Source: a virus
DNA length: 64,000 nt
IMG/VR virus record: IMGVR_UViG_3300029425_000240
Reading direction: 5' to 3' (one strand)
The position numbers and the translations under genes are program-made. How positions within the stretch are numbered: position 1 is the stretch's first letter; each line of letters begins with the position of its first letter. This document shows positions 19,919 to 35,951 of the stretch, in pieces. The notes beneath the pieces were generated by a model. The model did no database searches. It was not told the origin of the DNA and worked only from the letters and a program-made list of their open reading frames with translations.

Positions 19919-20170
19919 TTATAAAATCTTGATTGTTTGATTAGTTATCTTTGTAATTTTTTTTAAAATCTTTTTTTCTTCCTCTGTCTGAGGCTTTGGC
20001 TTATGTTCGCTGTACCAAAGCAAATACAGGTAATATCTTTCTGGATTTTTTTCAATATAATCAAAAACGTCTTCCTCTGACGGAATATATCCATCGTTTT
20101 CCATTTCAATCTTTTCCAGTTTATCCATTAAGGCATCAAAGTCATGCTCTGTTATTTCAATATGTTGCAT
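19919..20170 (-). CDS. hypothetical small protein (83 aa), first gene of topB-helicase operon
   Basis: AAAGGAGAGAAAGAT-ATG; conserved box 41 nt upstream. Confidence 0.5.
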   Translation of the reverse strand: MQHIEITEHDFDALMDKLEKIEMENDGYIPSEEDVFDYIEKNPERYYLYLLWYSEHKPKPQTEEEKKILKKITKITNQTIKIL

Positions 20171-20206
20171 ATCTTTCTCTCCTTTTTTTTATTTTTGCGG
20201 TTTGCC

Positions 20207-20222
20207 TTCAATATGCCGAATT
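20207..20222 (-). promoter_or_regulatory. conserved upstream box (TTCGGCATATTGAA), topB-helicase operon
   Basis: 41 nt upstream of ATG 20170; follows terminator 20255-20305. Confidence 0.5.
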
Positions 20223-20254
20223 TTTCATTTTTCGAACGGAGTAAAAATGTTTTT

Positions 20255-20305
20255 TTTGCAAAAAGAAAGGGCACCGCGTATTTTATACGCGGTGCCCTTT
20301 CTAAC
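20255..20305 (-). terminator. rho-independent terminator after coupling-protein gene
   Basis: Hairpin AAGGGCACCGCGTA-TTTTA-TACGCGGTGCCCTT with flanking A/T runs. Confidence 0.65.
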
Positions 20306-20313
20306 CAACAATG

Positions 20314-22863
20314 TCAATCATTATCATCATCATAATCATCAAAATCTACATCGTTATTTTTTTGTGAAGCCATACAATGAGCACCATTTTTACATCCTTT
20401 TTTTAATTCTTCAAATTTATCTTCTGACAGGATATCATTAACTTTATATAAATCCTGTCTGGATATGTTTCCTCGTTTTTTCTTGGATATTGACAACTGT
20501 AATCGTTCTGCTACTTTAACGATATTACATTGGTCATTCTTTGCGCCGAACCAGCACACATGTCCATCACTGATTCCGTTGCAGGCAACGGCTAAATCCT
20601 CAAATTCCCCGTCGTGTTGCTCAAAAGCCCTGTTTATCAGACCTTTTGCAAGAGCAATATCCATATTTTTTCCGTCAAACAATATCGTTGTTTCGTCGTT
20701 ACCCATAGACATCTGGATTGTGTCTTCCAGTAATTCACTGTACTTTGTAATCATTGAATTCCTTGTTTTGTTATTATCTGCATCCTTAATCAGATAATAT
20801 CCATCTTCTTCCGGATAGTTGACCAGAATTCCGTCCAGCACTTCTTCCAGTGTTTTAGGCTGGTACTTTTCGCTTACTGTATCATTATTTTCTTCCTGCT
20901 CGGCTATCTCCTCATATTCTACTGACTTATCAACGCACGAAAACTCTTCGTCCTGCTCCAGGAAATAAAAGTTTTTTTCATCCCCATCACCTGTTTTCAT
21001 AAACTGTGGATGCTTTTCCAGTGGATATTTACTATCATAAAATGGGTCGATTCCTCGCATCATGACAATACATTTGTCAAACGGCATGGTCATTATCTCA
21101 TCTGGAAGCATCAATTCACGTCCTGTTTGGTTAAACGATAAATTGCCTCCGCTCTTGCCCACGGGCGTGGATTTACTTCTCGACGTGATGGTACCTTTTC
21201 CAAGTTTTTTACTGAAATAATCTGCCGTAGTCTGCTCATTTGTACCAAGACAGATTGCGGTGTCACAGTTACCGATGATTGTCTCATAGTCATCCTTATA
21301 CAGCATTTTTATCTGTGCAATAGACTGCAGGACAATTGTTGTTGATATATTATATTTTCGGCAAGTGGAAATCTTCTGTGGGAATTCCGGAATCTTGCCG
21401 ATGTTGGCGAACTCATCGAGCAGGAACCTTACATGATATGGAAGCCGGCTATTCGGTATTGTGGCACCCTTATAATATAAAGATTCAAACATCTGAGAGA
21501 ACAGCATGGAAATCAAGAAGTTAAATGTGCTGTTCGTCTGCGGAATGATTGCAAAAAAGCACGTCAATTCATCACCCACCTTCTCCAGTTCCACGTTATC
21601 ATCATCTGTCAGATTCTGGATTGCCGGAATACTAAATGGGTTCAGTCTAACAGCAGCTGAAATCAAAATGGATTTCAACGTTTTTGTTCCACCAAGTTTG
21701 AACGTCTTATAGTTGGTGAGGCAAAGTGAAGTTTCTATTTTATCACGCAGCCTTCCAATTTCTTTTTGGTCCGTAACCTCCACAGCATCCAGCACCGTCT
21801 GTTTCTTTCCTGTCTTTTTATCTGTAATTGTTTTTTTACCGATTTTTTTTGTTCCATCAAACAATTCATCAAGTGGCATATCTATAGAGAAGCCAAATTC
21901 AGACGATGGCTTCTGCCCTGGCCGGCCGTTTTCATCCATCTGTGCCAACTGTACCATCCACAAAATGGTTGAGAACTTCCTAAACTCTGCATCAGCAATA
22001 TCAACAAGATAAAATACCAGCGCTGAGAGCAAAGCCTTTTCCGATTTATCCCAGAACGGGTCGCCGCTTTTTTGGTCCGGACCTGTTGTGTTTGAAATAA
22101 AACAGTCCACCAGAATACTGACATCTGTTTCGCTCCTGACGTATCGGAATGGATTGTACTTATTTGAATGAGACATATCGACCAAGTTAAATACTTTTAT
22201 CTTATACCCATTCTCAACCAATACGTTATGCATTGATTTCAGAAGCTCTCCGGAAGGGTCTGTTACTATGTAAGAGCAGTTCATCTGTAATACGTTTGGC
22301 TTTATAAAAAATCGTGATTTACCAGTACCAGCACCACCGACAATAAAAACATTGTTATTCAAATGTGTTTTCATATCAGCTGTTGACAGCCTTACCAATT
22401 CCGATTCTATCATGTTAGGGTTTCCTGGTACTGGTGGTGTCTTTTTATTGTTCAGGTTTTCCCCACCCATTTTTTTTGTCAGACCAGGCTCGTCACTAAA
22501 AGTCTTTTCACCAAACGGCTCCGAATGTCCTTGGTTAAATTCTTCAACTTTCTTATTCCAATGAGCCGAGCCGGCCTCTTTACCGGCCGCATCATGTTTC
22601 CATTTTTGCTCATATATCATGAAAAGCGCTACACCAATCCAATATATAAACGTCCATCTCAAGCATGTACCCCAGCTTACCGGATTTAACCAATAGAAGA
22701 TACCAAAATGGGATACCGCTTCCACTGCTGAAAAAATACTTGCTCCATCCTGTGTATGCTTCTGATAGCCAAATGCACCAGCTATCATCAGGCCAATAAA
22801 CCACAAGATGCCATACAAGACAAAGGCAAGCTTTTTCTGTTCAAGTTCTTTATCATCTTTCAT
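20314..22863 (-). CDS. type IV secretion coupling protein (VirD4/TraG/TraD family ATPase)
   Basis: N-terminal TM helices, Walker A VGGAGTGKSRF, large TraG/TraD-type domain; GGGAGGGG RBS. Confidence 0.8.
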   Translation of the reverse strand: MKDDKELEQKKLAFVLYGILWFIGLMIAGAFGYQKHTQDGASIFSAVEAVSHFGIFYWLNPVSWGTCLRWTFIYWIGVALFMIYEQKWKHDAAGKEAGSAHWNKKVEEFNQGHSEPFGEKTFSDEPGLTKKMGGENLNNKKTPPVPGNPNMIESELVRLSTADMKTHLNNNVFIVGGAGTGKSRFFIKPNVLQMNCSYIVTDPSGELLKSMHNVLVENGYKIKVFNLVDMSHSNKYNPFRYVRSETDVSILVDCFISNTTGPDQKSGDPFWDKSEKALLSALVFYLVDIADAEFRKFSTILWMVQLAQMDENGRPGQKPSSEFGFSIDMPLDELFDGTKKIGKKTITDKKTGKKQTVLDAVEVTDQKEIGRLRDKIETSLCLTNYKTFKLGGTKTLKSILISAAVRLNPFSIPAIQNLTDDDNVELEKVGDELTCFFAIIPQTNSTFNFLISMLFSQMFESLYYKGATIPNSRLPYHVRFLLDEFANIGKIPEFPQKISTCRKYNISTTIVLQSIAQIKMLYKDDYETIIGNCDTAICLGTNEQTTADYFSKKLGKGTITSRSKSTPVGKSGGNLSFNQTGRELMLPDEIMTMPFDKCIVMMRGIDPFYDSKYPLEKHPQFMKTGDGDEKNFYFLEQDEEFSCVDKSVEYEEIAEQEENNDTVSEKYQPKTLEEVLDGILVNYPEEDGYYLIKDADNNKTRNSMITKYSELLEDTIQMSMGNDETTILFDGKNMDIALAKGLINRAFEQHDGEFEDLAVACNGISDGHVCWFGAKNDQCNIVKVAERLQLSISKKKRGNISRQDLYKVNDILSEDKFEELKKGCKNGAHCMASQKNNDVDFDDYDDDND

Positions 22864-23953
22864 CTACCAGCCCCTCCCTGTCTTGTCTATATCCTTTCGC
22901 AAATTGTTTTATATGTTGTTCATGCATCTGTTTATAATCCTGCTTATCCTGCTTAGACATCTTGTACGCTTGGATATCTTCTATCTTGTAATCCCGACAT
23001 ACCCGCATCCGCATCAAAGAATAAATCGCTTTTCTTTCGCGGTCTCCATAGTCCTCAAGATTGTTTACCATCTTTCCAATTTCATCAACAGAAGGGATGT
23101 CGCTTAAATTTAGTATATCCAATGCTTCTCTTTTTTTTAGCATTAGAGGGGATTCCCGTAAACTTTTACGCGTCATATCCTTGCTCATCACATCGGCGAG
23201 TTCTCCATAAAAAACTTTCACAGGAAATTCTTTTCCATTCATCGTATTCAGAATTTCACTCAATACTTTACGCTCATAATCCGGGTCATTTTTTGGAATA
23301 AAACGTCCTTTTTTTAATGGATTCATACTGATTGCTCCATTTTTGTCAACTCTTATTCCACGCGTCCCTGCTTCGCTCCCTAAAAATACAACGCCATCAT
23401 GATTTAGCGCCTTTGAAGCCTGGTTGATGGCATAGCGCCAATACAAATTCTGTGATACGAAATGTTTTTTGCCAACTTCCGTGGTTTCTTCTTGCTTTAT
23501 TGTATCCATCGCGTTTTTAAATATATATTCTTTATTTTCTGCAAGCAAAAAGCTAATCCTTCCATCCTCTCCGATGGACTGCTTATAATCCACTCCTGCT
23601 TCCTTAAGAAAATCTATCATACCTTTTGCTTCGCTGTGCGAAAATCCTCCATACTGCACCAGTTTTTCTCCAAGCACCAAATGTGGCTGAATTTCCATGT
23701 ATTTTTCTCTTTGTTCTCGTGGATATATTAAAACCAAGTTTCCAGCAATATCCAACAGCCATGAGTCAAAAGCATCATTTATATCTGTTTCTTTTAATAT
23801 TTTTTGAGCCAGTCCTTTATCTTTCATATCAAGGACCACTGCATCAACTCCGCGATTGTAATGGATGCATTGAGCAAGAGTTTCTGCATGTCCGTTTTCA
23901 TTTACTTCCTGTCTGGCTTTAAAATATCTGTACAAAATATCTGTTGTCGCCAT
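22853..23953 (-). CDS. hypothetical protein (366 aa) co-transcribed upstream of coupling protein
   Basis: Start re-assigned to ATG 23953 (MATTDILYRYF...) after AAAGGAGG; the track ORF extends to 24247 across the promoter box; no relaxase HUH motif recognised. Confidence 0.55.
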   Translation of the reverse strand: MATTDILYRYFKARQEVNENGHAETLAQCIHYNRGVDAVVLDMKDKGLAQKILKETDINDAFDSWLLDIAGNLVLIYPREQREKYMEIQPHLVLGEKLVQYGGFSHSEAKGMIDFLKEAGVDYKQSIGEDGRISFLLAENKEYIFKNAMDTIKQEETTEVGKKHFVSQNLYWRYAINQASKALNHDGVVFLGSEAGTRGIRVDKNGAISMNPLKKGRFIPKNDPDYERKVLSEILNTMNGKEFPVKVFYGELADVMSKDMTRKSLRESPLMLKKREALDILNLSDIPSVDEIGKMVNNLEDYGDRERKAIYSLMRMRVCRDYKIEDIQAYKMSKQDKQDYKQMHEQHIKQFAKGYRQDREGLVDER

Positions 23954-23978
23954 ATATTTTTCCTCCTTTATCTTTATC

Positions 23979-23994
23979 TCCAATATGCAAAATA
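23979..23994 (-). promoter_or_regulatory. conserved upstream box (TTTTGCATATTGGA), coupling-protein operon
   Basis: ~30 nt upstream of ATG 23953. Confidence 0.5.
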
Positions 23995-24032
23995 AAAAAA
24001 ATATCGGCACGGCTAGGTTAAAAAGGGATTCA

Positions 24033-24046
24033 TTTCGCATATTAAA
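24033..24046 (+). promoter_or_regulatory. conserved upstream box, plus orientation (TTTCGCATATTAAA)
   Basis: 45 nt upstream of plus-strand ATG 24088; orientation follows gene strand. Confidence 0.5.
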
Positions 24047-24087
24047 AGAAAGAAATAAAAAATATCGGAAAAAGGAGTTAAAATACA

Positions 24088-24768
24088 ATGGGAATATTAA
24101 ACGATTATGAAGATGTCCTGCTTGGAAACCGGCAGCGCATACCGACAAGCTATTTTTTGTTTGACAAAAAGGGAAACGAGAGGATTGCACTTTCTGTAAT
24201 CCGATATGCGATAGAGAATTTATTAGGATGGGATATCCACAATGCAATAAAGCTATTTAATAAAAATTACATTTCATTTATGAAACTTGACCAGATGGTA
24301 AAATACATTGCGTTTCCATCTGATGTTACCAAGGATGATACAGAATATATACTTTATCTTCTTTATCCTCGCTATGTGGATTACGACGTAAAAAGGTATA
24401 CACTTCGTGTATATGATAAGGTAATGGCAGGAGAGGGGCGATACCCAAAGGACTATATGTACGGATACTTAGGTATGCTTCGCGCCAAAATATGTCTTCA
24501 ATACGTAATCAACAAAACATGTATGTTCAAATCAGAAGATGAACTATACAGGTTCTTTTCTTCAAAAGAGTGTATTAAATATTTAAAACAAAATAAATTA
24601 TATCAATTATATATCAGTTTTTACGCAACACCGCTGGAATACATGCACGACAGCATGCCGTCTGCAGTGAAAAATGATTTTCTTTTTCATAACTATATGT
24701 TCATGTCAAAATATGAACAATTAGAGGATATAAAGCGGGAATCCTCGGCAATTAAATTACCGAGATGA
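24088..24768 (+). CDS. hypothetical protein (226 aa), plus-strand island
   Basis: AAAAAGGAG RBS; plus-oriented conserved box 45 nt upstream; own terminator. Confidence 0.55.
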   Translation: MGILNDYEDVLLGNRQRIPTSYFLFDKKGNERIALSVIRYAIENLLGWDIHNAIKLFNKNYISFMKLDQMVKYIAFPSDVTKDDTEYILYLLYPRYVDYDVKRYTLRVYDKVMAGEGRYPKDYMYGYLGMLRAKICLQYVINKTCMFKSEDELYRFFSSKECIKYLKQNKLYQLYISFYATPLEYMHDSMPSAVKNDFLFHNYMFMSKYEQLEDIKRESSAIKLPR

Positions 24769-24805
24769 AAGCGCGAAATAAATAAAAGTATCGTTTACGA
24801 TTTTT

Positions 24806-24842
24806 ATCTTCGTGTCCAGATATGGATGCGAAGATTTTTTAC
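24806..24842 (+). terminator. rho-independent terminator after plus-strand 226-aa gene
   Basis: ATCTTCG..CGAAGAT stem followed by TTTTTT. Confidence 0.55.
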
Positions 24843-24886
24843 TTCCATACAGAAATTTTTCGCAAAAAACGACCGGTCTGTAAATT

Positions 24887-24901
24887 TTTCGGCATATTAA
24901 A
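24887..24901 (+). promoter_or_regulatory. conserved upstream box, plus orientation (TTCGGCATATTAAA) in front of tnpB
   Basis: 35 nt upstream of tnpB ATG 24933, after terminator 24806-24842. Confidence 0.5.
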
Positions 24902-24932
24902 TATGTAATGAAAAGGCAAGGAGGTGAGACGA

Positions 24933-26534
24933 ATGGCAAAGGCGAGAAGACGCAAAGATACGCAGTTTGAAACTTCTATGACGAAAAGTGTATTTCTGTA
25001 TGGCAGCCCGAATAAAGACAAATCTAAAATCATCCGGGATATGCAGAATGAATTTACAAAGATGGTAAATGGATATATCAGACTCCTTGCGGGTAATGAT
25101 AAATTTACACTTCAAATCGTAAAAAATGATAAGAAGAGCAGTGACATCCGCAAGTTTGAAAAATCCATCCGTCCGAAAAATGCAAATTCTGCATTCTCTC
25201 AGAATGCCTTTGACATGGCGGTGACCCATCTTTCTAACCGTATGGATAGCATCCGGCAGGATATGTATACAGAAGAACAGTCAGTCTTTACATCATCAAA
25301 AGTCCTGTTTGCAATGTCCATTGATTCCAAGACGAAGTCTGAGATGCTGAGCACTATGAAACAGATTGCGTCTAAAACAAAGAAAGACAAGGCTTTCTAT
25401 GAAGACTGTATCAGTATCCTGAATGAAATGTCAGACGACGAGTTTACATTTAAACAGGTGGAATTCATGGATATGTATATCAGTTTATCAATGGAATACC
25501 GTGTCCCAGAATTAAGACGGGCGCATATGCCTCTTGACAGCAGGCTGATGAAGATTGAAGTATCAACAGATACCGTCATGCCATATGTGATTAAGATAAG
25601 CGACGCTTTACATAAAAACGCAGAAAGAATCGTAATACCGATTAACACAAGCAGACATCCTGCCAATAAAATCAAATCACATAAAATGGCCGGTACGGTC
25701 ATGGCGTCAATTGATGAAAACGGAATCCTGCAGGTCGGATGGAGTTATGAGTCAAAAATGAAACAGCCAAAGACTTCAAATGTGGTAGGCGTTGATGTCG
25801 GTATCTCTGACACACTGCATACATCTGAAGATAAAGCAATCGGCAGCATGAAGCCGGTGATTGCTTTTTACCACGATACAGTGGAAAAGTCATTCGCTTC
25901 GCTGTCTGACATGAGAAATAAAAAACGCAGTATCAGCCATTACCTGCGAAGACATAAGGCCCTTCCGGAAGATGTGAGACGTTCTCTCATCAAAAAGATG
26001 GACCGGCTTGACCAGATGATTCAAAAGGCTGATGCCCCATACCGCAAGAAGCGCTGCTATTATGAAACACTTGACCATGAGATTAAATCAAGCATAGACA
26101 GATATATAGAATCAATCTCACATGATACCCTGACAGTCCTAGAAAAACTGGATATCAGGGAATTTAACAAAAGCCGTAAGTCTAACGGTATGATGTCAAC
26201 ATTTGCGAGAGGGAAGCTGCAGAAGAAGCTCATGGAGACTTTAAACTGGTATGGCTATGATTTCAAGGAAATTATACCGGATTACACCAGCCAGACATGT
26301 CCGGTATGCAGCCATCTTGAAAAAGACAACCGCAATGGCAAGTCTTTTAAATGCAAGTGCTGCGGATATGAAGCGGATGCGGATTATGTTGGAAGCCTGA
26401 ACATCAAGGCAAGAATCGACGACCAGGAAATACAGGAGATATGCGAAAAGTATAAGTATAAACATAATGAGTTACAGAAGAATCTTAAGATGATATACAA
26501 ATCACGTAACGACCAATACAAAGCAGCGGCCTGA
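24933..26534 (+). CDS. tnpB: TnpB-like RNA-guided endonuclease (IS605 OrfB / Cas12-ancestor family), RuvC triad intact
   Basis: RuvC-I VGVDVGISD, RuvC-II LTVLEKLD, Zn finger CPVCSH...CKCCG, RuvC-III ADADYVGSLNI; ATG 24933 after AAGGAGGTGAGACGA (track starts at GTG 24924); no adjacent tnpA. Confidence 0.8.
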   Translation: MAKARRRKDTQFETSMTKSVFLYGSPNKDKSKIIRDMQNEFTKMVNGYIRLLAGNDKFTLQIVKNDKKSSDIRKFEKSIRPKNANSAFSQNAFDMAVTHLSNRMDSIRQDMYTEEQSVFTSSKVLFAMSIDSKTKSEMLSTMKQIASKTKKDKAFYEDCISILNEMSDDEFTFKQVEFMDMYISLSMEYRVPELRRAHMPLDSRLMKIEVSTDTVMPYVIKISDALHKNAERIVIPINTSRHPANKIKSHKMAGTVMASIDENGILQVGWSYESKMKQPKTSNVVGVDVGISDTLHTSEDKAIGSMKPVIAFYHDTVEKSFASLSDMRNKKRSISHYLRRHKALPEDVRRSLIKKMDRLDQMIQKADAPYRKKRCYYETLDHEIKSSIDRYIESISHDTLTVLEKLDIREFNKSRKSNGMMSTFARGKLQKKLMETLNWYGYDFKEIIPDYTSQTCPVCSHLEKDNRNGKSFKCKCCGYEADADYVGSLNIKARIDDQEIQEICEKYKYKHNELQKNLKMIYKSRNDQYKAAA

Positions 26535-26835
26535 AACGAGTATGCAGAAAAGAAATAGTCTCTGACTATTACACCTTCTGTCGAAAGCTTCAGGCCCATA
26601 GGAGCCTCGTCGTGTCCTGCTGTAGCATGTCTGCAGCCGGGCCTCTGTCCAGGGATAGTTCTGGTGCATATGCTTGCATATGTGTCGGTTGTATTTCTCG
26701 CAGGTAAAAGTAATTGTTTTACCTGGTGTCTTCGGATACTCGGTAATTCATATTTATTCTGGTAACGACTCCGGCAAAGCCGGGGAGTTATCAATTTCCG
26801 AGAGGTTCACAAAGCGTGCAAGATTAAAAAAAGCA
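26535..26835 (+). ncRNA. candidate TnpB guide (omega/right-end) RNA scaffold
   Basis: ~300 nt ORF-poor structured region directly 3' of tnpB, with hairpins caggtaaaag..cttttacctg (26700-26726) and ccggcaaagccgg (26771-26783), then a strong terminator; by analogy to IS605-family omega RNAs. Confidence 0.35.
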
Positions 26836-26862
26836 AGAGGGCTGCCCTCTTGCTTTTTTATT
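26829..26862. terminator. bidirectional terminator between tnpB/omega region and dnaN-like gene
   Basis: GCAAGAGGGC-TGC-CCTCTTGC stem with A-run upstream and T-run downstream. Confidence 0.65.
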
Positions 26863-26885
26863 ATGTTAACTTTTCTATTTTTATC

Positions 26886-28037
26886 TTATTCGCGTTTTCT
26901 TGGAAGCACACAGTAAACATATTCGTTACTGTCCCCACAGCACATCCAGATTGGCGCTTTCGGTCCAATCACTCCGATTGTAATTTTGTCCTTAGGATAA
27001 ATGCTTGCTGCTTCTTTCAGAAAATCCGGGTTAAAATAAGCAGGCTCTGGAACTTCTCCGACTGTCTCAGCCTCAATCTTTTCTCCATACTGAGAAAGAC
27101 CGATTCCTCCAATCTCGAGTTCTTTTTCTTTGAATTTCAGCATCGCTGATGAGTTCACTCCAGATGCCCCGGTCTCCTGAAGTACATACTGAACACAGGA
27201 GATGGATTCAATAAAGTCTCTCTTGTCAATTGTGATAGAGAATTTGCAAGCGTCTTTTCCGATTTCTCCGTCAATCATTCGCTGTACGGCCGGATATTTT
27301 TTATCCAGGACCGGAATGCACACATGCTTTTTACTGTAATCCATATATAATTTTCCGCTATCGATAGTAATATCGATATTAGCATCATCATCTGATGCAT
27401 CTACAATGTCAATCATTGTCTTAAACTGCTCAGGCGGAACAATCACAGTTCCGGTGTAGTCTCCATTCTTGACAGCATATGCAGTTCGCTGAGCCACGCG
27501 TAAGCCATCAAGGCATGTAATCGTAAGAGCCAGCAGCCCGTCCTCATCTTCACGGATATTCAGATGTACGCCATACCCTGCATTTGTCTCCTCACGGCTT
27601 GCAGCAAAAATTGTTTCTGCAACCATTTTCTTTAATGTTGCAAACGGAAGCGCAACCTTCGGTGTATCTTTTTCAGGCTTTGCTACGTCATTAAATACAA
27701 CATCAACTCTTGTGAGTACAGTCTTGGCATTTCCGTCTCTGTACATCATGGTCATAGCGTTGCCATCATCACTTGATGATGCAGAGATTTTTCCGGTGCA
27801 CTTTCTAAGACTAAAGATGTTAAGTTCTGAAAATGACACGACAAACTCTCCATCTTCTCCATCTGTCAATTCAACCTGGACGATGCATCCAATATTACCA
27901 TTTGTAGATAATTCCAGGATATTTCCTTTTACCTCCATCTTAACAACGGCCATTTCGTTGATACCGTTTTTCTTTACAGCTTTTCCAATTGTTGCGATTG
28001 CTCCTCTAAATGTCTCATAGTCTGTTTTAAATTTCAT
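26886..28037 (-). CDS. dnaN: DNA polymerase III beta sliding-clamp (DnaN)-like protein
   Basis: 383 aa, N-terminus MKFKTDYETFRGAIATIGKAV typical of beta clamps, three-domain length; GAAAGGAAAAAATATT-ATG. Confidence 0.6.
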   Translation of the reverse strand: MKFKTDYETFRGAIATIGKAVKKNGINEMAVVKMEVKGNILELSTNGNIGCIVQVELTDGEDGEFVVSFSELNIFSLRKCTGKISASSSDDGNAMTMMYRDGNAKTVLTRVDVVFNDVAKPEKDTPKVALPFATLKKMVAETIFAASREETNAGYGVHLNIREDEDGLLALTITCLDGLRVAQRTAYAVKNGDYTGTVIVPPEQFKTMIDIVDASDDDANIDITIDSGKLYMDYSKKHVCIPVLDKKYPAVQRMIDGEIGKDACKFSITIDKRDFIESISCVQYVLQETGASGVNSSAMLKFKEKELEIGGIGLSQYGEKIEAETVGEVPEPAYFNPDFLKEAASIYPKDKITIGVIGPKAPIWMCCGDSNEYVYCVLPRKRE

Positions 28038-28090
28038 AATATTTTTTCCTTTCTTTTTTTAGCTATTTTAGCTATATTTTGTTTAGCATC

Positions 28091-28106
28091 TTTAATATGC
28101 CAAATT
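28091..28106 (-). promoter_or_regulatory. conserved upstream box (TTTGGCATATTAAA), dnaN-like gene
   Basis: 58 nt upstream of ATG 28037. Confidence 0.5.
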
Positions 28107-28202
28107 TGATTGTCGCTAAAAAACACCAGAGCAGCATCTCCAGCCTGAGACTTCTGTCCTTTGTTACTGACTTCCCGGATTTGCCGGACTCATTTCCAGA
28201 TA

Positions 28203-29072
28203 TCAGACTGCCATTCTTTTTTCTCTTTCTTCTGCTTTTTCTTTGAGCAGATTTTTAAGTTCCATCATGCTATTCACTCTATATTTATCCATCAATTGTT
28301 TTTTTACATCAAAAGTATCAACACTTTCGATACGCAGCCCATTTTCTTTTTCCTCTTTTTTTGTAATCCCCCATTTCTCAGTCAACGTGTCATAATAAAT
28401 CTTCCCAATCGAAGTATCGCAAAAAATCCATTCTGCATAGTTTCGATACGAACTCTGCCAAAAATACGCATAGTTTACAACGCAGGCTTTTTTATTTTGT
28501 TCCATCTTTTTCATCCTGCGGTAACTTCCGGTGCAGTCTATAAACGTTTCTTTTAGATTTTCCAGACTGTTCTTATCTGTAAAATTTTCACCGCACTTTT
28601 TAGCCATTCTTTTTATATCAAAATATGAATTATCAATAGATTTATACTTGGATTCAATGATATCATTATTCAGCATCGAAATAATAGAATATGGTTTGCA
28701 AGAAACTATAATCCCGTCATATTTTATAAAATAATCAGACACAGCTCTTGCCATTTCCTTCTTTTCCATACCATTTCTTAATTCTTCAAGCGTTACTCCA
28801 ACTTTTCTTAATGTTTCCGGTCTTCTCTTTCTTTCATCTTTACAAACGATGTTCAATTTGGCACAAGGGTCAGAGTTTGCAATGAATTTTCCGATTATAT
28901 TAATAACATCGCCATTCTCAAGAACATCTTCCACATAATAGGTTTCTGCTTCGATACGCAGGATTTCTTTACCTACGCTAAATATATTCAAAAAAGTAAT
29001 ATTACGAGAGCCTCTAATCATATTTTCCACATTTTTTGTTTCATATTTTGCCGTTTCTGTCATAAATGCCAT
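28203..29072 (-). CDS. hypothetical protein (289 aa)
   Basis: GGAGGAATAAGGT-ATG RBS; no domain recognised. Confidence 0.5.
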   Translation of the reverse strand: MAFMTETAKYETKNVENMIRGSRNITFLNIFSVGKEILRIEAETYYVEDVLENGDVINIIGKFIANSDPCAKLNIVCKDERKRRPETLRKVGVTLEELRNGMEKKEMARAVSDYFIKYDGIIVSCKPYSIISMLNNDIIESKYKSIDNSYFDIKRMAKKCGENFTDKNSLENLKETFIDCTGSYRRMKKMEQNKKACVVNYAYFWQSSYRNYAEWIFCDTSIGKIYYDTLTEKWGITKKEEKENGLRIESVDTFDVKKQLMDKYRVNSMMELKNLLKEKAEEREKRMAV

Positions 29073-29104
29073 ACCTTATTCCTCCATACCTTCTTATGCG
29101 TTTA

Positions 29105-29200
29105 TCTCGATACCCCACCAGCTCTGCCGGATTCGTTACCAATTTGCGTAGCAAATGACAAGCGAAGCCGTAAGACTGAGTGCAGAGATTAAAATTAGTA
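29105..29200. repeat. repeat locus R2 (module A copy)
   Basis: CGTTACCAATTTGCGTAGCAAATGACAAGCGAAGCCGTAAGACTGAGTGCAGAG: ~90% identical to module A at 13536 and 34193. Confidence 0.65.
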
Positions 29201-29226
29201 TGCCAAAAAAAAGAAACCGGAGATAT
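29193..29226 (-). terminator. rho-independent terminator after 29255-30448 gene
   Basis: ACCGGAGATATCTCCCCGGT imperfect stem, T-run on minus strand (plus A-run 29194-29203). Confidence 0.45.
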
Positions 29227-29254
29227 CTCCCCGGTCTTATATTTTTTGAAAGCA

Positions 29255-30448
29255 TTATCTTATCAGAGCGCGCCCTAACTCCAACTCATAGCGACGCTTT
29301 CCGCCGTCATATCCGCTGCTTGTATGCTTTTTGTTTTTTATATTAAATATCCCTGTCTTTATTACATCTGAAGCCATAGCGATTGGCGTATCAGTGTTAA
29401 TAGATGACATGTAAGTTACAAACCTCTCTTCTGCTTTTTTTGGAACAAGTCCTTTTTGCAGCACGTTTTTAATGATATCATTTGCTGTAATATTTAGATT
29501 TAAATCTGCCGTATAACATACTTCGAATCGTTTAATGATGTTATCGGCAATCTCGTCTCCGGACATCTTAGTACGATGGTTAACTTCCATACTGTCAAGG
29601 ATATACAGCCTGTTATCAATCTTTACTGCAAAATCGACGCGCATGCTCTTTCTCCCAGATAATGTATCCTGGAACAAAATACATACCGGGATTCCGTCGG
29701 AACGCAACCGGGCAGGTTTGCATCTAAAAGTAAAGCTTAATGCTGGCTGTCTTTTTATCTGCTCTAGGTATGCAGACTCAAACAGCATACTCCTTCCGCA
29801 TTTATTATATAGACATCTAGCAATCTCTACCGCAGAAATCTGATTCTCACCATTCATAGATTTTAGCCCAACAAGCCGTGCATATACTTTTTTTCTGGCA
29901 CGGACCGGTTTATAATGAATACCGATAAGCTCATCTGTCCGCCTTAATCTTCCGGCCAGTGTTTTCAATGTGTCCGGTGATGAGAAATGATTTACCGTTA
30001 TAGGAGGTTCTTTTGTTTTTCCTTTGTTCATACAGTCATCAACAATATTCTTGCGGCTGTAATCGTTCAGCGTTCTGCTGTTTACTTCACGGCTTGGGAT
30101 ATAGCGTATTCCGTCAATCTCATAAAAGCACTCGGATTTATTGATGATATAGCACATTTTATCAGGCAATTGTTCAAAAATCGTCTCCTGTTTTCCAGTA
30201 CTTACGGATGTGACCAGCATTTCCAGCCCTCCTGTTTTTATTTCCTTTGCCTGATAGATTTTTGCTTTTTTAAAATCAATCTTTGTCGATTTTATTGCAG
30301 AAGAATAGTCTTCCCATAAATCTTTCAGGCCTTCCATATTAAATGTTCTCAAATTAATTTCCCCTTTCTTATTTGTTTTTGTTTCACATTTAATATGAAT
30401 GTTTTTCGTTTCATCAAAAAAGCAGCGGAGCTCATGCCGCTGCCTCAT
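29255..30448 (-). CDS. hypothetical protein (~397 aa), possibly replication-associated
   Basis: Track ORF begins at 30493 inside the SSB-like acidic-tail codons; first ATG after the SSB-like stop is 30448 (MRQRHELRCFFDE...), weak RBS; start uncertain. Confidence 0.45.
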   Translation of the reverse strand: MRQRHELRCFFDETKNIHIKCETKTNKKGEINLRTFNMEGLKDLWEDYSSAIKSTKIDFKKAKIYQAKEIKTGGLEMLVTSVSTGKQETIFEQLPDKMCYIINKSECFYEIDGIRYIPSREVNSRTLNDYSRKNIVDDCMNKGKTKEPPITVNHFSSPDTLKTLAGRLRRTDELIGIHYKPVRARKKVYARLVGLKSMNGENQISAVEIARCLYNKCGRSMLFESAYLEQIKRQPALSFTFRCKPARLRSDGIPVCILFQDTLSGRKSMRVDFAVKIDNRLYILDSMEVNHRTKMSGDEIADNIIKRFEVCYTADLNLNITANDIIKNVLQKGLVPKKAEERFVTYMSSINTDTPIAMASDVIKTGIFNIKNKKHTSSGYDGGKRRYELELGRALIR

Positions 30449-30452
30449 ATAG

Positions 30453-31307
30453 TTACTCTGAGTCTTCGTTCTCATCATCGTCTTCTTCGTCATCCGGAGC
30501 CAGGTTCGGAAGTCTAAGATATTCTGTATCGTATGAAAGGACTTCCAGTGTCCTTCCCCTTACGTCATACTCTTCGCCGCATACTCCACAGGTATACTGT
30601 TCTTTAAATTTTCTTGCCTGCAGGGCGCCATCTACAAATACGAGGGCACCTTTTTCAAGATTCTGGTAATCTTCAATAGATTTGTCACCATAAGAGTACA
30701 CCCACGGATAGTCTGTTCTTTCGTACATTTCATTTCCGCCCTTTGGACAATACTTACGGTTGATAGCCAGCTGGAATCTTGTATACGGCTTTCGTCCTCC
30801 CTGCAGCTCCCCGTGGATAGGAGAGTTTGTTAAATTACCAAGCACAAACACACGGTTTGCATCCTCTTCGTTTGCATGCAGATACTCGTACGCTGCCTGT
30901 TCGGTTTCAAACTTCTCCTCTACTCTTAGCGTAATTGGATATACAAAAATCTCATTACCGCCGGATTTTGGCTTTCCGTTTCTTACGCATGCATCAACTC
31001 TTCGGTTGACCGCATTGCAAAACGGACACTCTGCTTTTTTATCTTTTTCTCTTGTTGCTAAAAATCCTGTCATTTTTACAACATCCCATAACTGCAATGT
31101 ATCCATCACATCAAGGATTTCTTTTTCCTGTGTTCTGGCACAAAAAGAAACACTGTTTAATTGATAACCGCTTGTAGCCTTGTCGTACTCTCTTCCACTC
31201 ATAATCGTTGTAAGACCAACGATTCCGGCTCTTCCGTCAACTGTGTCTTTGAATTTTGGTTCCTTTCGTACCAGCGCAAGAACACTCACATAATTATGTC
31301 TTGCCAT
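30453..31307 (-). CDS. SSB-like protein with acidic C-terminal tail and two Cys-x2-Cys pairs
   Basis: N-terminal OB-fold-like pattern (NYVSVLALVRKEPKFKDTVDGRAGIVGLTTI), C-terminal DDEEDDDENEDSE tail as in SSBs; CPFC / CGVC motifs; GAGGAGG RBS. Confidence 0.45.
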   Translation of the reverse strand: MARHNYVSVLALVRKEPKFKDTVDGRAGIVGLTTIMSGREYDKATSGYQLNSVSFCARTQEKEILDVMDTLQLWDVVKMTGFLATREKDKKAECPFCNAVNRRVDACVRNGKPKSGGNEIFVYPITLRVEEKFETEQAAYEYLHANEEDANRVFVLGNLTNSPIHGELQGGRKPYTRFQLAINRKYCPKGGNEMYERTDYPWVYSYGDKSIEDYQNLEKGALVFVDGALQARKFKEQYTCGVCGEEYDVRGRTLEVLSYDTEYLRLPNLAPDDEEDDDENEDSE

Positions 31308-31377
31308 ATTTTTTCCTCCTCTTTTTTTTCTATAGTTTTCTTTCTTTTAGAGAGTCTTTTTTTTCTTTTCTCTATTC

Positions 31378-31393
31378 TCCAATATGCAAAATA
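31378..31393 (-). promoter_or_regulatory. conserved upstream box (TTTTGCATATTGGA), SSB-like operon
   Basis: 75 nt upstream of ATG 31307; overlaps T-run of terminator 31391-31432. Confidence 0.5.
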
Positions 31394-31432
31394 AAATAAA
31401 AAAGGTACATCGTAGCATTTCGCGATGTACCT
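31391..31432 (-). terminator. rho-independent terminator after SPFH gene
   Basis: GGTACATCG..CGATGTACC 9-bp stem plus T-run that merges into the next promoter box. Confidence 0.65.
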
Positions 31433-31465
31433 TTTTCTTATTTTTTTTGTCTATTGCAGCGCCTG

Positions 31466-32530
31466 TCAGTCAGTTTCGTCCTTATGCATATCATGGACCA
31501 TTCCCGCATTAGTCATCGCCGACTGCATACTTACTTTCGTCCTTGGTGTTTTCATGCAGGCATCCTCAGACACCGTCTTTTTGACGCATTTTTCTTTTCG
31601 GATTTTTTCCGCTTCGGCATTTGAGAATTCCTTTTTAGGTTCCTTTGTTGCTCCCCAAAAAGCCTCGCCGGCAATCGCTGCAGGCCCGACACCTTCTGCC
31701 AGATTATTTGGGATAAAGATTTTTGTAGCCCGGCCATCGGCCACATCCTTCATCGCTTCAATAGATTTTAAACGTAAAATATTTTCATTTACGCCTGACT
31801 CCGCAAGCCTTCTAAGTCCTTCTGCTTCTGCTTCATATACAAGCCTGATAGCCTCCGCCTGGCCTTTCGCAAGAGCAATTTTTGCGTCTCTCTCAGCTTC
31901 TGCGTCAAGCAGTTTCGCCTGCTTATCACCTTCTGCCCTGGATACTACAGATTCTTTATGTGCCTGTGCTTCCAATACGGTCTGGCGTCTTTCTCTTTCA
32001 GCCCTCATCTGCTTTGTCATGACCTCTTCAATCTCTTTCGGTGGCTTGATATTTTTGACCTCCACGCGTGATACCTTAATACCCCATTCATCAGTTGCTT
32101 CATCAAGCACATCCTGCATCTGGCGGTTGATATCTGCTCTCGAAGACAGTGTCTGGTCTAATTCCATGGCGCCAATAATACTTCTGAGAGTCGTGGCTGT
32201 CAAATTCTGTAAACCAGTGATAGGTTTCTCAATTCCATATGTATACAATTTTGGGTCGAAAACACTTGCATACACGACAGAATCGATACTAATTGTGACG
32301 TTATCTTTTGTGATAACATCCTGTGGCGGAAAATCGTACACCTGTTCCTTGATGGAGATTTTCTTTACAATCTTATCAATGACTGGAACTTTCACATGCA
32401 GGCCAGCCTCCCACGTTGTGCTGTATTTTCCAAGGCGCTCAATAATGTAGCATGCCTGCTGAGGGACGATACGTATCTGGTTCGCCAGGAATACAATGAT
32501 TATTACTAGAATAACTATAACAAAAAACAT
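31466..32530 (-). CDS. SPFH/band-7 (stomatin/prohibitin/HflK-C-like) membrane protein
   Basis: N-terminal TM, SPFH core, then Ala/Glu-rich coiled coil (AEAERDAKIALAKGQAEAIRL); AGGAGG RBS. Confidence 0.75.
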   Translation of the reverse strand: MFFVIVILVIIIVFLANQIRIVPQQACYIIERLGKYSTTWEAGLHVKVPVIDKIVKKISIKEQVYDFPPQDVITKDNVTISIDSVVYASVFDPKLYTYGIEKPITGLQNLTATTLRSIIGAMELDQTLSSRADINRQMQDVLDEATDEWGIKVSRVEVKNIKPPKEIEEVMTKQMRAERERRQTVLEAQAHKESVVSRAEGDKQAKLLDAEAERDAKIALAKGQAEAIRLVYEAEAEGLRRLAESGVNENILRLKSIEAMKDVADGRATKIFIPNNLAEGVGPAAIAGEAFWGATKEPKKEFSNAEAEKIRKEKCVKKTVSEDACMKTPRTKVSMQSAMTNAGMVHDMHKDETD

Positions 32531-32743
32531 ATTTTATCCTCCTGTGTGTTTTGTTGCCGATAACCGAAACAGGAATTTAAAGTGTTGATACAATGGCCAG
32601 TTGTCGCAAGCACGTTGTTTATGTCCCGGGTCTCTATGTACAATATGATAAATATTTGGAAGAACAGTGTATTTGTATATAAAAAACGTATAAAAAAAAA
32701 ACATGGAGGTCATCCTAATCGGCAAGCCGATTACTCTGACCTC

Positions 32744-32897
32744 GAGACAAGACATATACACTGCAAAATCGCGGAAGGTTCTATCCGCTCCGATACTGGA
32801 TATCCTATAAGTTTTCTTAAAATTCATATATATCGTGATATCCAGTATCTTCGCGTTCCAGATATATGAAGATTTTGCAGTGTACATGTCTTGTCTC
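32744..32897. repeat. 154-bp nested inverted repeat (27-bp outer arms, 13-bp perfect inner arms, AT-rich centre): candidate origin / oriT / operator
   Basis: Outer arms GAGACAAGACATATACACTGCAAAATC (32744-32770) and its complement at 32871-32897 (26/27); inner GATACTGGATATC (32792-32804) / GATATCCAGTATC (32837-32849); 32-bp AT-rich core. Confidence 0.7.
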
Positions 32898-34042
32898 AGC
32901 TTTTTTCTTTCGTTAGTGCGGGCGTGATTCATATATTCTAAAAGTTTTGACATGTTGAGTGTTATTACGATGCGTGATGTCGCTTTACCGGATAAATCAC
33001 ACCCTTCGTTAATGGGCTGCATTCCCAGTTGCCATCTCAACGTTACACCTTGCAAAAAGTAAATTTATATTTCGTAACCTTACGTTTTGAAAGGCGGCCT
33101 TTGGCCGCCATGCAGCCCAGAGGAGGAGGGAGCTGAGCAGATTGACATAGCTTCTCCTTGCGAAAAAGCGCAGACTCTCCCTATAATGGTATGCGTCTGC
33201 GCGGAAGAAGGATAACGCTATGCCATTCTGCTCAGATTTTATGTAGCCCGTCGGAATCGGTCGCTTCACATCATGACGGTCTTAGATAGCAGTCGCACTC
33301 ATCGAAAAACTTATCGAAGAGTTTATCGGAAAGCGCAACCCTGCAGTTCAAATCAGCCGTGCTGATTTTGGCGTAGTCTAAATTATACATTTCTTCTGTA
33401 CAATCTATGGCACATCCCACACGCCATGATGTTTCCATCATCCTACAGGTCCCGACAGCCCGCAAGCTGCCTGTGCATTTGTGCTTCACTTCCTCCTGTT
33501 GCGGTTTTATTACATCAACTGTATATACAATTTGTCTTTATTTCCGCGGATTCCGTTATCCACAAACTCCCCCGCGTCCTACTCTTAACCAGGTTTCCAC
33601 CCGTGCTTTCGCATCTTACGCATACAACTACGTATTAGGCAAAGGGCTTGCAACGCACTACACCCCCTTAGGTCATCGGATAGTCTAAGACCAAACTATT
33701 TTTTCCGCTCCCTGCTCGACTTTTGCCGCTCGGCAACACTTAACGTTGTTTTAGTAACCAGATTGGTCCTTGCTCTGCATTACTGCAGCATATGTCTCGT
33801 TCTCATCACGTTTTTTTTATTATTTTTGCTGATTTTGTCTTTCTTTTTTTATCTTTATGCAAAAAAAACAATAATTAACGTCCTCTTGGTAGAGGTGACA
33901 CCTCAATATTCAATTTGACCGCGTGATATTTCCACAAATTTCCTGCCTCCTTTTATTTCTTTTTTTTCGCTTCTTTGTACAATATCAGTAAGGTCCTTCA
34001 GGACTTTTTGTAAAGTTCCTGGCTGTCATCTGTATCATCAGA

Positions 34043-34058
34043 ATCAATATGCAGAATA
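34043..34058 (-). promoter_or_regulatory. conserved box (TTCTGCATATTGAT) inside the 2-kb noncoding region
   Basis: No annotated CDS downstream; AAAGGAGG-type RBS and a ~20-codon TTG/GTG mini-ORF follow ~75 nt later; may drive a leader or noncoding transcript. Confidence 0.35.
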
Positions 34059-34117
34059 ATTTGTGAACCGGACGGATTTTTTTATTTTTTTTAAAAATCA
34101 TCGACGGGAGGAAAGCC

Positions 34118-34560
34118 CTCGTCCAACTTTGATACCTCGCCGGCTTTGCCGGAGTCGGTACCAGAGCACGCATGATACCTTGTCGCATCGGCTCGTTACC
34201 AATTTGCGCAGCAAATGTCAAGCGAAACCGTAAGGCTGAGTGCAGAGAATAAATATGATACTTCGTGCTTCGCACTCAGTACCAGAATGAATATGATAAC
34301 TCAGGCTTAGCGCCTTCGTTACCAGAATAAATATGATGCCTCACCGGCCTTGCCGGATTCGGCACCAGAGCACGCATGATACCTCGCCTGCTTTACAGGA
34401 CTCGGCACCAGATTAAAAATGATAACTCAGGCTTAACGCCTTCGTTACCAGAATAAATATGATAACTCGCCGTTACCGGCTCGTTACCAAGCCTCGCAGA
34501 GGCTGACAAGCGAGCATAGCTCGCGGTATCATGAGCCTGTATGACAGGCTACTTATTTTT
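34118..34560. repeat. tandem hairpin array R3 (~10 units, period 39-45 bp)
   Basis: Unit = ~27-nt conserved block (C)GGTACCAGA-ATAAATATGATAACTC alternating with short 4-5-bp-stem hairpins (GCCGGCTTTGCCGG, GTGCTTCGCAC, AGGCTTAGCGCCT, CCGGCCTTGCCGG, CCTGCTTTACAGG, GCCGTTACCGGC); one unit carries a module A insertion. Confidence 0.75.
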
Positions 34561-35565: not shown

Positions 35566-35824
35566 CAAAAAACTCCTCCTTGTTGATTTCTGGCTTTAAC
35601 ATCTTTTTTATAGTTTCACGATAGCTCCTCTCCGGCACCGATTTGATGTCACTCTTATCTATCTGACATAAACTTTCTCCCATCTTTTTTAATTCTTTAG
35701 TAGTTTCTTCTAATGGTTTATATTTGGAACTCCATTCTTTCCAGATAGTTTCAAAGTCATAACTTTCGTTCCCAGCAATATATTCTGCTAGATTTTTCAT
35801 TGCTGAATACATTGTTTTTCGCAT
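35528..35824 (-). CDS. hypothetical protein (98 aa), overlaps and is co-transcribed with the sigma factor gene
   Basis: ATG 35824 after AAAAGGAGG (track ORF starts at 36103 inside the previous gene); C-terminal DKDECCR; 38-nt overlap with the sigma gene. Confidence 0.45.
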   Translation of the reverse strand: MRKTMYSAMKNLAEYIAGNESYDFETIWKEWSSKYKPLEETTKELKKMGESLCQIDKSDIKSVPERSYRETIKKMLKPEINKEEFFDGHVSDKDECCR

Positions 35825-35860
35825 ATTCTTCGGCCTCCTTTTCAGGTCTTCGTGTTCTAT

Positions 35861-35876
35861 GTTAATATGCCGAAAA
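35861..35876 (-). promoter_or_regulatory. conserved upstream box (TTTCGGCATATTAAC), sigma-factor operon
   Basis: 41 nt upstream of ATG 35824, follows terminator 35895-35938. Confidence 0.5.
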
Positions 35877-35894
35877 CAATATGAAGGATTACGT

Positions 35895-35938
35895 TTTTTT
35901 TGCAAAAAAAAGAGCAGGAATATAAATCTCTGCTCTTC
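35895..35938 (-). terminator. rho-independent terminator after 35952-37028
   Basis: AGAGCAG..CTGCTCT stem followed by T8 on minus strand. Confidence 0.6.
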
Positions 35939-35951
35939 GTGTTGCTTAGAA

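Follow-up and report, generated by a model that had tools for sequence, protein, structure and literature searches.

The gene examined here, tnpB, encodes a 533-amino acid protein of the TnpB family of RNA-guided nucleases and occupies positions 24933 to 26534 (plus strand) of a 64,000-nucleotide stretch of DNA recorded in IMG/VR as IMGVR_UViG_3300029425_000240, referred to below as the window. Its ribosome-binding site, AGGAGG, is located at 24919 to 24924 (plus strand). The gene lies within an inserted unit of 2086 bp, spanning positions 24725 to 26810 (plus strand), that has the makeup of a tnpA-less IS200/IS605-family element and whose limits were set by blastn breakpoints against loci that lack it. 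On its left, the unit overlaps the end of a plasmid gene with a weak match to DUF4046 (24088 to 24768, plus strand), and on its right it is followed by a terminator and by dnaN. As an earlier note on this DNA had counted, tnpB is one of only two convincing plus-strand genes in the window, the other being the open reading frame (ORF) at 24088 to 24768, and the GC skew changes sign at 24 to 27 kb. That note had also read tnpB as a domesticated component, wired into the surrounding element rather than recently inserted as part of an insertion sequence (IS). The comparisons below point to the opposite conclusion.

Boundaries, ends, and relatives of the inserted unit

The exact DnaN protein was used as a look-up to find the same plasmid locus in other sequences, which gave at least 10 places. 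Among the 10 listed, the unit is present in seven and absent from the other three (L128, L130, and L135), wherein dnaN is followed directly by a 217-amino acid version of the upstream gene. The flanks of these three empty loci are 99.0 to 99.7% identical to those of the window, and their DnaN proteins are identical. Blastn alignments of the window to the empty loci break off precisely at 24725 and 26811, to within a 1-nt ambiguity, and the target is not duplicated. The empty allele reads ...GGACAATTAG/AAAGCGCGCAAGAATAAAAAAAGCAAGAGGGC... (break CAATTAG/AAAGCG), and the occupied allele reads ...GAACAATTAG/AGGATAT...GGTTCAC/AAAGCGTGCAAGATTAAAAAAAGCAAGAGGGC..., that is, CAATTAG/IS/AAAGCG. The exact DnaN occurs in 1023 collection blocks and the exact TnpB in 370, which fits a presence/absence polymorphism. 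Scans of IMG/VR for the empty-site junction and for the occupied junction were both without a match.

Comparison with the empty allele also reveals that the ORF at 24088 to 24768 is chimeric. Its native product has 217 amino acids and ends in ...QLESAQE, with a TAA stop codon just 5′ of a terminator at 26827 to 26859. Insertion of the IS yields a product of 226 amino acids, wherein the IS left end, with its hairpin, supplies the codons for the 13 residues that follow QLE (DIKRESSAIKLPR) as well as the stop codon. The terminator, identified by a terminator scan, is bidirectional and is common to the ORF217/226 gene and dnaN. The empty loci have it in the same form, and it is therefore part of the plasmid and not of the IS. 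Backbones with and without the IS differ by at most 1%, while the IS itself differs by 8% from its nearest sampled relatives, and thus sequence divergence indicates that the unit was inserted recently compared with the time at which IS lineages diverged.

The block from 24725 to 26810 is likewise conserved in other genomic contexts. DNA similarity to the loci of relatives is restricted to approximately 24725 to 26750 of the window, and the contexts of the related tnpB genes are unrelated, including a restriction-modification pair, the interval between a Bro-N gene and a PIF1 helicase gene, and the neighborhood of a Band_7 gene.

The anatomy of the ends was derived from edge alignments and motif scans across 126 loci, which include 35 distinct flank pairs and units of 1.9 to 2.4 kb. 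The left-end consensus is TTAG/GA..GCGGGAATC-[CTCGGCCATTCAATGACCGAG]-ATGAAAGCG... and the right-end consensus is ...GATG-[CTCGGCCATTCAATGACCGAG]-TAGTTCAC/, where slashes mark the insertion boundaries. In the window, the sequence TTAG at 24721 to 24724 (plus strand) is the target, or transposon-adjacent motif (TAM), and the empty site establishes that it is plasmid-gene sequence rather than part of the IS. The left-end DNA guide AATC (24740-24743, plus strand) comprises the four bases 5′ of the foot of the left-end subterminal hairpin CTCGGCAATTAAATTACCGAG (24744-24764, plus strand) and is complementary to TTAG; guide and hairpin are conserved in all family copies. Indeed, TTAG is positioned 17 to 19 nt 5′ of this hairpin in 50 of 51 distinct contexts. 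The right end consists of the DNA guide GATA (26735-26738, plus strand), recognized by family comparison, the hairpin arms CTCGGTAATTCA...ATTTCCGAG (26739-26750 and 26794-26802, plus strand), and the transposon-encoded motif (TEM) TCAC, which forms the final bases of the IS (26807 to 26810, plus strand).

The left-end and right-end subterminal hairpins are alike and are conserved in more than 35 contexts. Their stems covary (e.g., GTCATT/AATGAC versus GTAATT/AATTAC), and similar, covarying hairpins at both ends are a hallmark of the IS200/IS605 family. At the right end, 45 contexts combine GATG with terminal TCAC and eight combine CATG with TGAC, which from the sequences is a compensatory change. 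The register of guide-to-motif pairing used here is one that we take to follow IS608. Pairing of DNA guides with cleavage motifs is itself an established principle (PMC10055086). From guide complementarity and the empty site together, the target/TAM is TTAG and the TEM is TCAC. Use of TTT as the TAM with AGGA as the start of the IS was considered and rejected, since the empty-site target ends in TTAG and the guide AATC complements TTAG. A full-text literature search for TnpB together with TAM and TTAG did not find such a paper. The earlier note had proposed to define left-end and right-end remnants by alignment to IS605/IS1341 TnpB families; both ends are present here, with subterminal hairpins, TAM, and TEM.

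Family members of 2.3 to 2.4 kb with the same ends carry, between the left end and tnpB, an ORF of 136 to 149 amino acids with the motifs DHVHLFV and YIEHQ, one example being at 3572 to 3985 of L014. This ORF matches the Pfam family Y1_Tnp with E values of 1e-38 to 1e-43, and by tblastn a Y1 tnpA gene adjoins tnpB in 45 fetched loci. No tnpA was found in the 64-kb window by tblastn or by Pfam searches of small ORFs, in keeping with the earlier note. The presence of tnpA in the long relatives and its absence here mark the window copy as a non-autonomous derivative. Approximately 25% of tnpB genes have a tnpA gene nearby, and most are without one (PMC10055086).

The closest relatives are five sister copies (L041 and L044 to L047) of 2041 bp that occupy five different sites and are 97.8 to 99.8% identical to one another; the window copy is 92% identical to them. 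Other members of the family are found in Lachnospiraceae and Erysipelotrichaceae genomes, often as several copies per genome and at contig ends, and four family loci are on IMG/VR contigs. Distant members are present in Thermoanaerobacter, Virgibacillus, and Pontibacillus, including nine places on one Pontibacillus megaplasmid.

Comparison with the sister copies also exposes peculiarities of the window copy. Sister copies read TTAG/GATATAAAGCGG, whereas the window reads TTAG/AG/GATATAAAGCGG, with an extra AG (24725 to 24726, plus strand) separating the TAM from the GATAT... that canonically opens the left end. The distance from TAM to hairpin is consequently 19 nt, compared with 17 to 18 nt elsewhere. 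In addition, the loop of the right-end hairpin holds a 43-nt hairpin unit (26751 to 26793, plus strand) that is missing in the sister copies. The extra AG and the 43-nt insert are confined to copies at this site, and the insert is present in every such copy. The right-end guide GATA, in place of GATG, recurs in six contexts, some of which are at this same site, and L062, L063, and L116 are alike in this respect.

The 43-nt insert corresponds to one unit of a tandem array at approximately 34125 to 34520 (minus strand), located 3′ of a sigma-factor gene, and matches 34165-34130 (minus strand) over 36 nt at 92% identity. Its insertion junction, TTCA/TATTTATTCTGGTAACGA (TTCA/TATTT), mimics the array junction ATCA/TATTT. 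The array comprises approximately 9 to 10 units of 38 to 43 nt, each with a conserved GTTATCA-TATTTATTCT-GGTAACGA segment and a variable palindrome of 14 to 19 nt whose stems covary (CCGGC/GCCGG, CCTG/CAGG, AGGC/GCCT, and GTGC/GCAC). Possibly, this unit is a mobile miniature hairpin of the REP or PATE kind.

Several loci of the family have features of their own. L108, L111, and L112 each share the left flank with one locus and the right flank with another, which suggests either IS recombination between copies or tandem or nested arrangements. In L041 (9379-12470), a GIY-YIG endonuclease ORF separates the two ORFs into which the anaerobic ribonucleotide reductase gene (NRDD) is split, and an HNH/NUMOD1 ORF is nearby, an arrangement that looks like an intron or homing-endonuclease insertion. 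L001 carries a second, unrelated tnpB of 491 amino acids with OrfB_IS605 and TNB domains (6738-8213), 2 kb from the family copy and beside an EcoO109I-type restriction-modification pair.

The nuclease, its promoter box, and its omega-RNA scaffold

Profile matches and an AF2 model (pLDDT 81) assign the 533-amino acid protein the TnpB/Cas12f fold, with its WED, REC, RuvC, and TNB domains. Residues 427 to 491 match the Pfam domain Cas12f1-like_TNB (PF07282) with 59.6 bits against a cut-off of 26.3, and PHROG “transposase” families match at an E value of 1e-25. A profile search of PDB sequences aligns only residues ∼340 to 499, to TnpB, Cas12f, and CasPhi proteins. Relatives from RefSeq plasmids that align over the full length at 33% identity are named “RNA-guided endonuclease TnpB family protein.” In Foldseek searches, the model matches AsCas12f, CnCas12f1, ISFba1 TnpB, and ISDra2 TnpB over the full length with a probability of 1.0 and E values of 1e-11 to 1e-9, with TM-scores of only 0.3 to 0.44.

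As the earlier note had proposed, the RuvC motifs and the C-terminal zinc finger are intact. Among 16 aligned family sequences spanning 57 to 92% identity, the RuvC residues D288 (GVDVGISD), E404 (VLEKLD), and D484 (DADYVG) are invariant, as are the cysteines C456/C459 and C474/C477 of the zinc ribbon (CPVC...CKCC). The ratio of nonsynonymous to synonymous substitution rates (dN/dS) of tnpB relative to the sister lineage is 0.11. Judged from these residues, the nuclease has been kept intact, and activity is probable. Within the family, a sub-clade (P0077/P0087), one member of which is from an NCBI Ruminococcus sp. genome, has a 20-amino acid insertion, INVERGIPRSESGNEQERRV, right after the RuvC-II glutamate motif LEKLD (alignment columns 410 to 429).

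A bipartite promoter-like element precedes the gene (plus strand), formed by CGCAAAAAACG at 24861 to 24871 and the box TTCGGCATATT at 24888 to 24898, the latter an exact copy located 45 nt 5′ of the tnpB ATG. With at most one mismatch, TTCGGCATATT occurs 13 times in the window, compared with two occurrences expected. Twelve of the 13 boxes are on the minus strand, 25 to 60 nt ahead of start codons (e.g., 20210, 35864, 56491, and 62340), and most carry GCAAAAAA(C)G approximately 17 nt upstream; the copy at 24888 has both promoter halves. An element-specific promoter is therefore a credible reading of the box, and the earlier note was right that the copy ahead of tnpB is not accidental. A sigma-70-family protein is encoded at 34549-35568 (minus strand) and may read the bipartite motif.

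The box is located within the IS unit, 45 to 52 nt 5′ of the ATG, in sublineages of the window type, the L041 type, and the L001/L052 type, all of which reside in elements that themselves use the box. It is missing from tnpA-bearing and other IS sublineages. Because the box is inside the mobile unit and moves with it, its presence is no argument against an IS, and the two observations hold together.

In the tnpA-less plasmid sublineage, the interval between the left end and the ATG consists of a terminator-like hairpin followed by the promoter. The hairpin of the window copy (24806 to 24840, plus strand), which has a T run and was located by a terminator scan, lies inside the left end, is conserved by alignment in L010 and L001, and probably functions to insulate the IS from read-through out of ORF226. 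The tnpB/omega-RNA transcript probably ends at the plasmid terminator (26827 to 26859). The terminator-to-terminator unit described in the earlier note is accurate with respect to the two hairpins; the second, however, is the plasmid's own. A 15-nt inverted repeat with 93% complementarity connects 24842 to 24856, just 5′ of the box, with 24992 to 25006 (tnpB codons 20 to 25). In read-through transcripts, this repeat might mask the start of tnpB; alternatively, it may have arisen by chance.

The tnpB stop codon is followed by approximately 280 nt of structured, conserved noncoding sequence. Covariation places an omega-RNA scaffold at 26529 to 26810 (plus strand), starting at or before the stop codon and ending with the right end. 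In an alignment of 29 distinct 3′ regions, the RNAalifold consensus has 45 base pairs, of which 32 exhibit compensatory changes. Pairing is maintained in 93.8% of alignment cells, compared with 34 to 46% when partners are slid by one to three columns, and none of 500 shuffles reached the observed pairing values. A covariance model trained on 25 relatives, with the window clade excluded, matches 26589 to 26810 over its full length (92.7 bits, E value 1e-24), and a search of the window with this model did not find a second full copy.

One helix of the scaffold spans the stop codon (26529 to 26533 with 26591 to 26595). A long-range closing helix pairs GGAGCCUC (26602-26608) with GAGGUUC at the right-end terminus (26802-26808) and covaries, with AACUAC/GUAGUU present in most relatives. 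The scaffold further contains two internal stem-loops and the right-end hairpin, and the minimum free energy fold of the window sequence recovers the consensus helices. The 3′ region is thus well supported by covariation as a conserved structure and, on the strength of the alignment, is a genuine scaffold derived from the right end, much as the earlier note had anticipated. The Rfam search for HEARO and omega-RNA models that the note recommended returned no relevant match: a permissive search of 24000 to 27500 (E values up to 10) gave chance-level matches only (PyrG leader and plastid 3′ untranslated region terminators), and a search of the whole window at gathering scores found nothing. The scaffold is an RNA family absent from Rfam 15.

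The predicted guide segment of the omega RNA, AAAGCGTGCAAGATTA (26811 to 26826, plus strand), is flanking plasmid DNA. This role is assigned from its position immediately 3′ of the right end, where TnpB omega RNAs are known to carry their guide (PMC8612924). At the empty allele, the sequence is TTAG+AAAGCGCGCAAGAATA, with two mismatches to the guide, at positions 7 and 14. Among all fetched DNA, TTAG-flanked near-matches to the guide are found only in the three empty loci L128, L130, and L135. The exact TAM plus guide has no match in IMG/VR, and a scan of the window for the guide next to TTAG with up to four mismatches found no other site.

Two differences in 20 nt, given a background of approximately 1%, correspond to a Poisson P of about 0.02, and an excess of mismatches over background is suggestive. 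The differences could be escape mutations, or merely reflect a fast-evolving gene tail; because the C-terminal tails of 217-amino acid homologs are hypervariable, the two mismatches are not polarizable. One further sequence, P0121, is an occupied allele that carries the G variant, and its contig stops inside the IS.

Proposed mechanism and competing explanations

We conclude that positions 24725 to 26810 are very probably an IS200/IS605-family insertion sequence that lacks tnpA and is non-autonomous, located 3′ of a TTAG at the end of a small gene on a large conjugative plasmid of gut Bacillota. The discrete boundaries, the like hairpins at both ends, the match between guides, TAM, and TEM, the polymorphic presence of the unit, the sites occupied by sister copies, and the Y1-bearing relatives all lead to this ordinary IS reading.

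The steps by which such a unit would act can be proposed from the biology of the family (Karvelis 2021, PMC8612924; Meers 2023, PMC10055086; Nety 2023, PMC10278001). The IS-borne promoter would drive a tnpB mRNA that continues through the right end into the flank and ends at the plasmid terminator. TnpB would then bind the 3′ part and process it to the omega RNA, with the last ∼16 nt (AAAGCGTGCAAGATTA) serving as the guide; processing of guide RNA out of the tnpB transcript has precedent (PMC10278001). The complex would cut DNA carrying TTAG plus the guide sequence, which is the same locus free of the IS, whether on a sister copy from which the IS has been excised or on a plasmid that enters without it. 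Recombinational repair off the IS-bearing copy would restore or spread the IS. For movement to a new site, a full-length relative sharing these ends would have to provide Y1 TnpA in trans. By analogy, TnpB most likely serves to cut the IS-free allele under RNA guidance and so to aid retention and spread of the IS; such cutting is known to promote both (PMC8612924, PMC10055086).

Several observations weigh against this interpretation. The window lineage was encountered at just one site. The extra AG, the insertion in the right-end loop, and the GATA guide might impair excision by TnpA or the function of the omega RNA. The sampled empty alleles mismatch the guide at positions 7 and 14 and so may not be cleavable. 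The match to the NCBIfam guided_TnpB model (NF040570) covers residues 251 to 494 only and, at 98.0 bits, falls short of the cut-off of 100. Finally, the promoter and the omega RNA, as transcribed elements, are predictions from sequence.

Some of these same observations give a measure of plausibility to a different account, which we regard as possible although clearly the less likely one. The window copy may be stranded, immobilized by its aberrant left junction and interrupted right-end hairpin, and may persist through homing by TnpB and its omega RNA or by hitchhiking on the plasmid. Such a copy would be at a first step to domestication rather than a finished one. The restriction of the extra AG and the insert to copies at this site is in its favor, as are the 19-nt TAM-to-hairpin distance outside the range seen elsewhere and the single site occupied by the window lineage in all look-ups versus five for the sister lineage. 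However, the contrast between 8% divergence of the IS and at most 1% of the backbone argues for a recent arrival from a donor of its own lineage. Moreover, the right-end stem arms are intact, the insert folds as its own hairpin within the loop, and GATA right-end guides also occur in other copies.

A stranded copy with an active TnpB might go further and act as a gene drive or exclusion weapon of the plasmid, cutting incoming IS-free siblings at TTAG-AAAGCGTGCAAGATTA, a proposal that we consider improbable. If it were true, IS-free sibling plasmids would be destroyed or converted, and the changes at positions 7 and 14 would be escape mutations. Likewise, the plasmid-type promoter, probably read by a plasmid sigma factor, would couple the nuclease to plasmid transcription.

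The ordinary IS reading must also be weighed against the earlier proposal of a domesticated TnpB-derived system, wherein a fixed guide serves plasmid or phage competition as part of the core program of the conjugative element. The element-specific type of promoter, the failure to find tnpA in the window, and the identical protein at the same site in many samples speak for domestication. Nevertheless, this proposal is very unlikely to be correct. The unit is missing from three of the 10 places listed, where the flanks are 99 to 99.7% identical and DnaN is identical; its ends and TAM are canonical; and the IS takes the promoter box along to its other sites. Sister copies at five sites and Y1-bearing relatives with the same ends are further marks of an IS. 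The guide, moreover, equals flanking DNA, and the TAM plus guide has no exact counterpart in IMG/VR or elsewhere in the window. The earlier note had accepted that its proposal would fall to a complete, recently inserted IS with IS605-type hairpins and target-site features and an accidental box. By that standard the proposal falls: clear hairpins and target-site features, an exact empty site, sister copies at other sites, and Y1-bearing family members are all present, and the box, although real, lies inside the unit and moves with it.

The notion that the protein is a Cas12f-like miniature effector of a type V CRISPR system, or a TldR (a TnpB-like repressor with a dead nuclease), can be set aside almost entirely: the best Foldseek matches are Cas12f structures and NCBIfam Cas12f2 matches weakly (46 bits versus a cut-off of 450), but 20000 to 36000 is without a CRISPR array, holding only the palindromic hairpin array (34.1-34.5 kb, with periods of 40 to 43 nt) some 7 kb away, the guide scaffold is fused to the IS right end, and the catalytic D-E-D triad and zinc ribbon are invariant.

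The host plasmid and known systems

The window encodes a type IV coupling protein, topoisomerase III, a RecD2-like helicase, a ParM-like protein, SSB, the sigma-70-family protein, the DnaN clamp, and a 2440-amino acid protein with a phage-lysozyme domain, and nearly all of these genes are on the minus strand. It is part of a conjugative element of Bacillota. Many human-gut samples have yielded metagenomic contigs, some as long as 403 kb, that encode exact copies of TnpB and DnaN, and the host is thus a widespread megaplasmid. The “Hodor” megaplasmids (PMC12934698) resemble this host in being conjugative, larger than 300 kb, and in carrying ParM, Phage_lysozyme2, and a TnpB IS. Their stated GC content of 44.6 to 47%, however, is a misfit with the ∼40% of the window, and the likeness may fall short of identity. 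The plasmid pMMCAT was also considered as the host and was rejected, as it is from Bacteroidales. Megablast of the 20- to 32-kb region against phage and plasmid collections gave no match, and a tRNA scan found none. Between a 173-amino acid ORF and the hairpin array, approximately 1 kb (33055-34125, minus strand) is without convincing ORFs. This interval contains a box at 34046 to 34056 and GC-rich hairpin-forming stretches, belongs to no Rfam family, and may encode a structured RNA or serve as an origin.

Several implications follow if the unit is indeed a plain non-autonomous IS. What looked like an orphan TnpB under its own promoter in a conjugative element would then not count as a case of domestication. 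The family defines a well-populated TnpB clade of gut Bacillota, with proteins of 525 to 570 amino acids, an inferred TAM of TTAG, and a scaffold absent from Rfam, and thereby offers a nuclease candidate. It also includes an IS sublineage that has exchanged tnpA for a terminator and a promoter of the host-plasmid type. The natural polymorphism of occupied and empty sites on a widespread megaplasmid provides a setting for studying TnpB-driven homing, and the 43-nt hairpin repeat unit is seemingly able to enter a hairpin loop.

Among solved structures, Cas12f (type V-F; AsCas12f, PDB 8dzj and 8j12) is the closest in full-length fold (probability 1.0, E value 1e-11) and is similar in size. Unlike Cas12f systems, the window system is without a CRISPR array or adaptation genes and has a single, flank-derived guide fused to the end of the IS.

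The closer likeness is to the IS200/IS605 elements ISDra2 of Deinococcus radiodurans, IS608 of Helicobacter pylori, and ISGst of Geobacillus stearothermophilus. Shared features are the subterminal hairpins, insertion at a fixed tetranucleotide without duplication, the match between guides, TAM, and TEM, a Y1 HUH TnpA in autonomous members, a RuvC domain with zinc ribbon, and an omega RNA that overlaps the end of tnpB and the right end and takes its guide from the flank. The family described here differs in its TTAG TAM, its omega RNA without an Rfam family, and its longer protein (525-570 amino acids), which has a large helical N-terminal half matching no sequence family. In the window sublineage, a terminator and a promoter of the host-plasmid type stand in place of tnpA.

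Non-autonomous IS elements that carry only tnpB form the IS1341 group in ISfinder usage. The window copy shares with them the order of left end, tnpB, omega RNA, and right end, the lack of a transposase, and ends in common with autonomous relatives, through which mobilization in trans is possible. It is distinguished from them by its residence on a conjugative megaplasmid, its plasmid-type promoter, the extra AG at its left junction, and the foreign 43-nt hairpin in its right-end loop.

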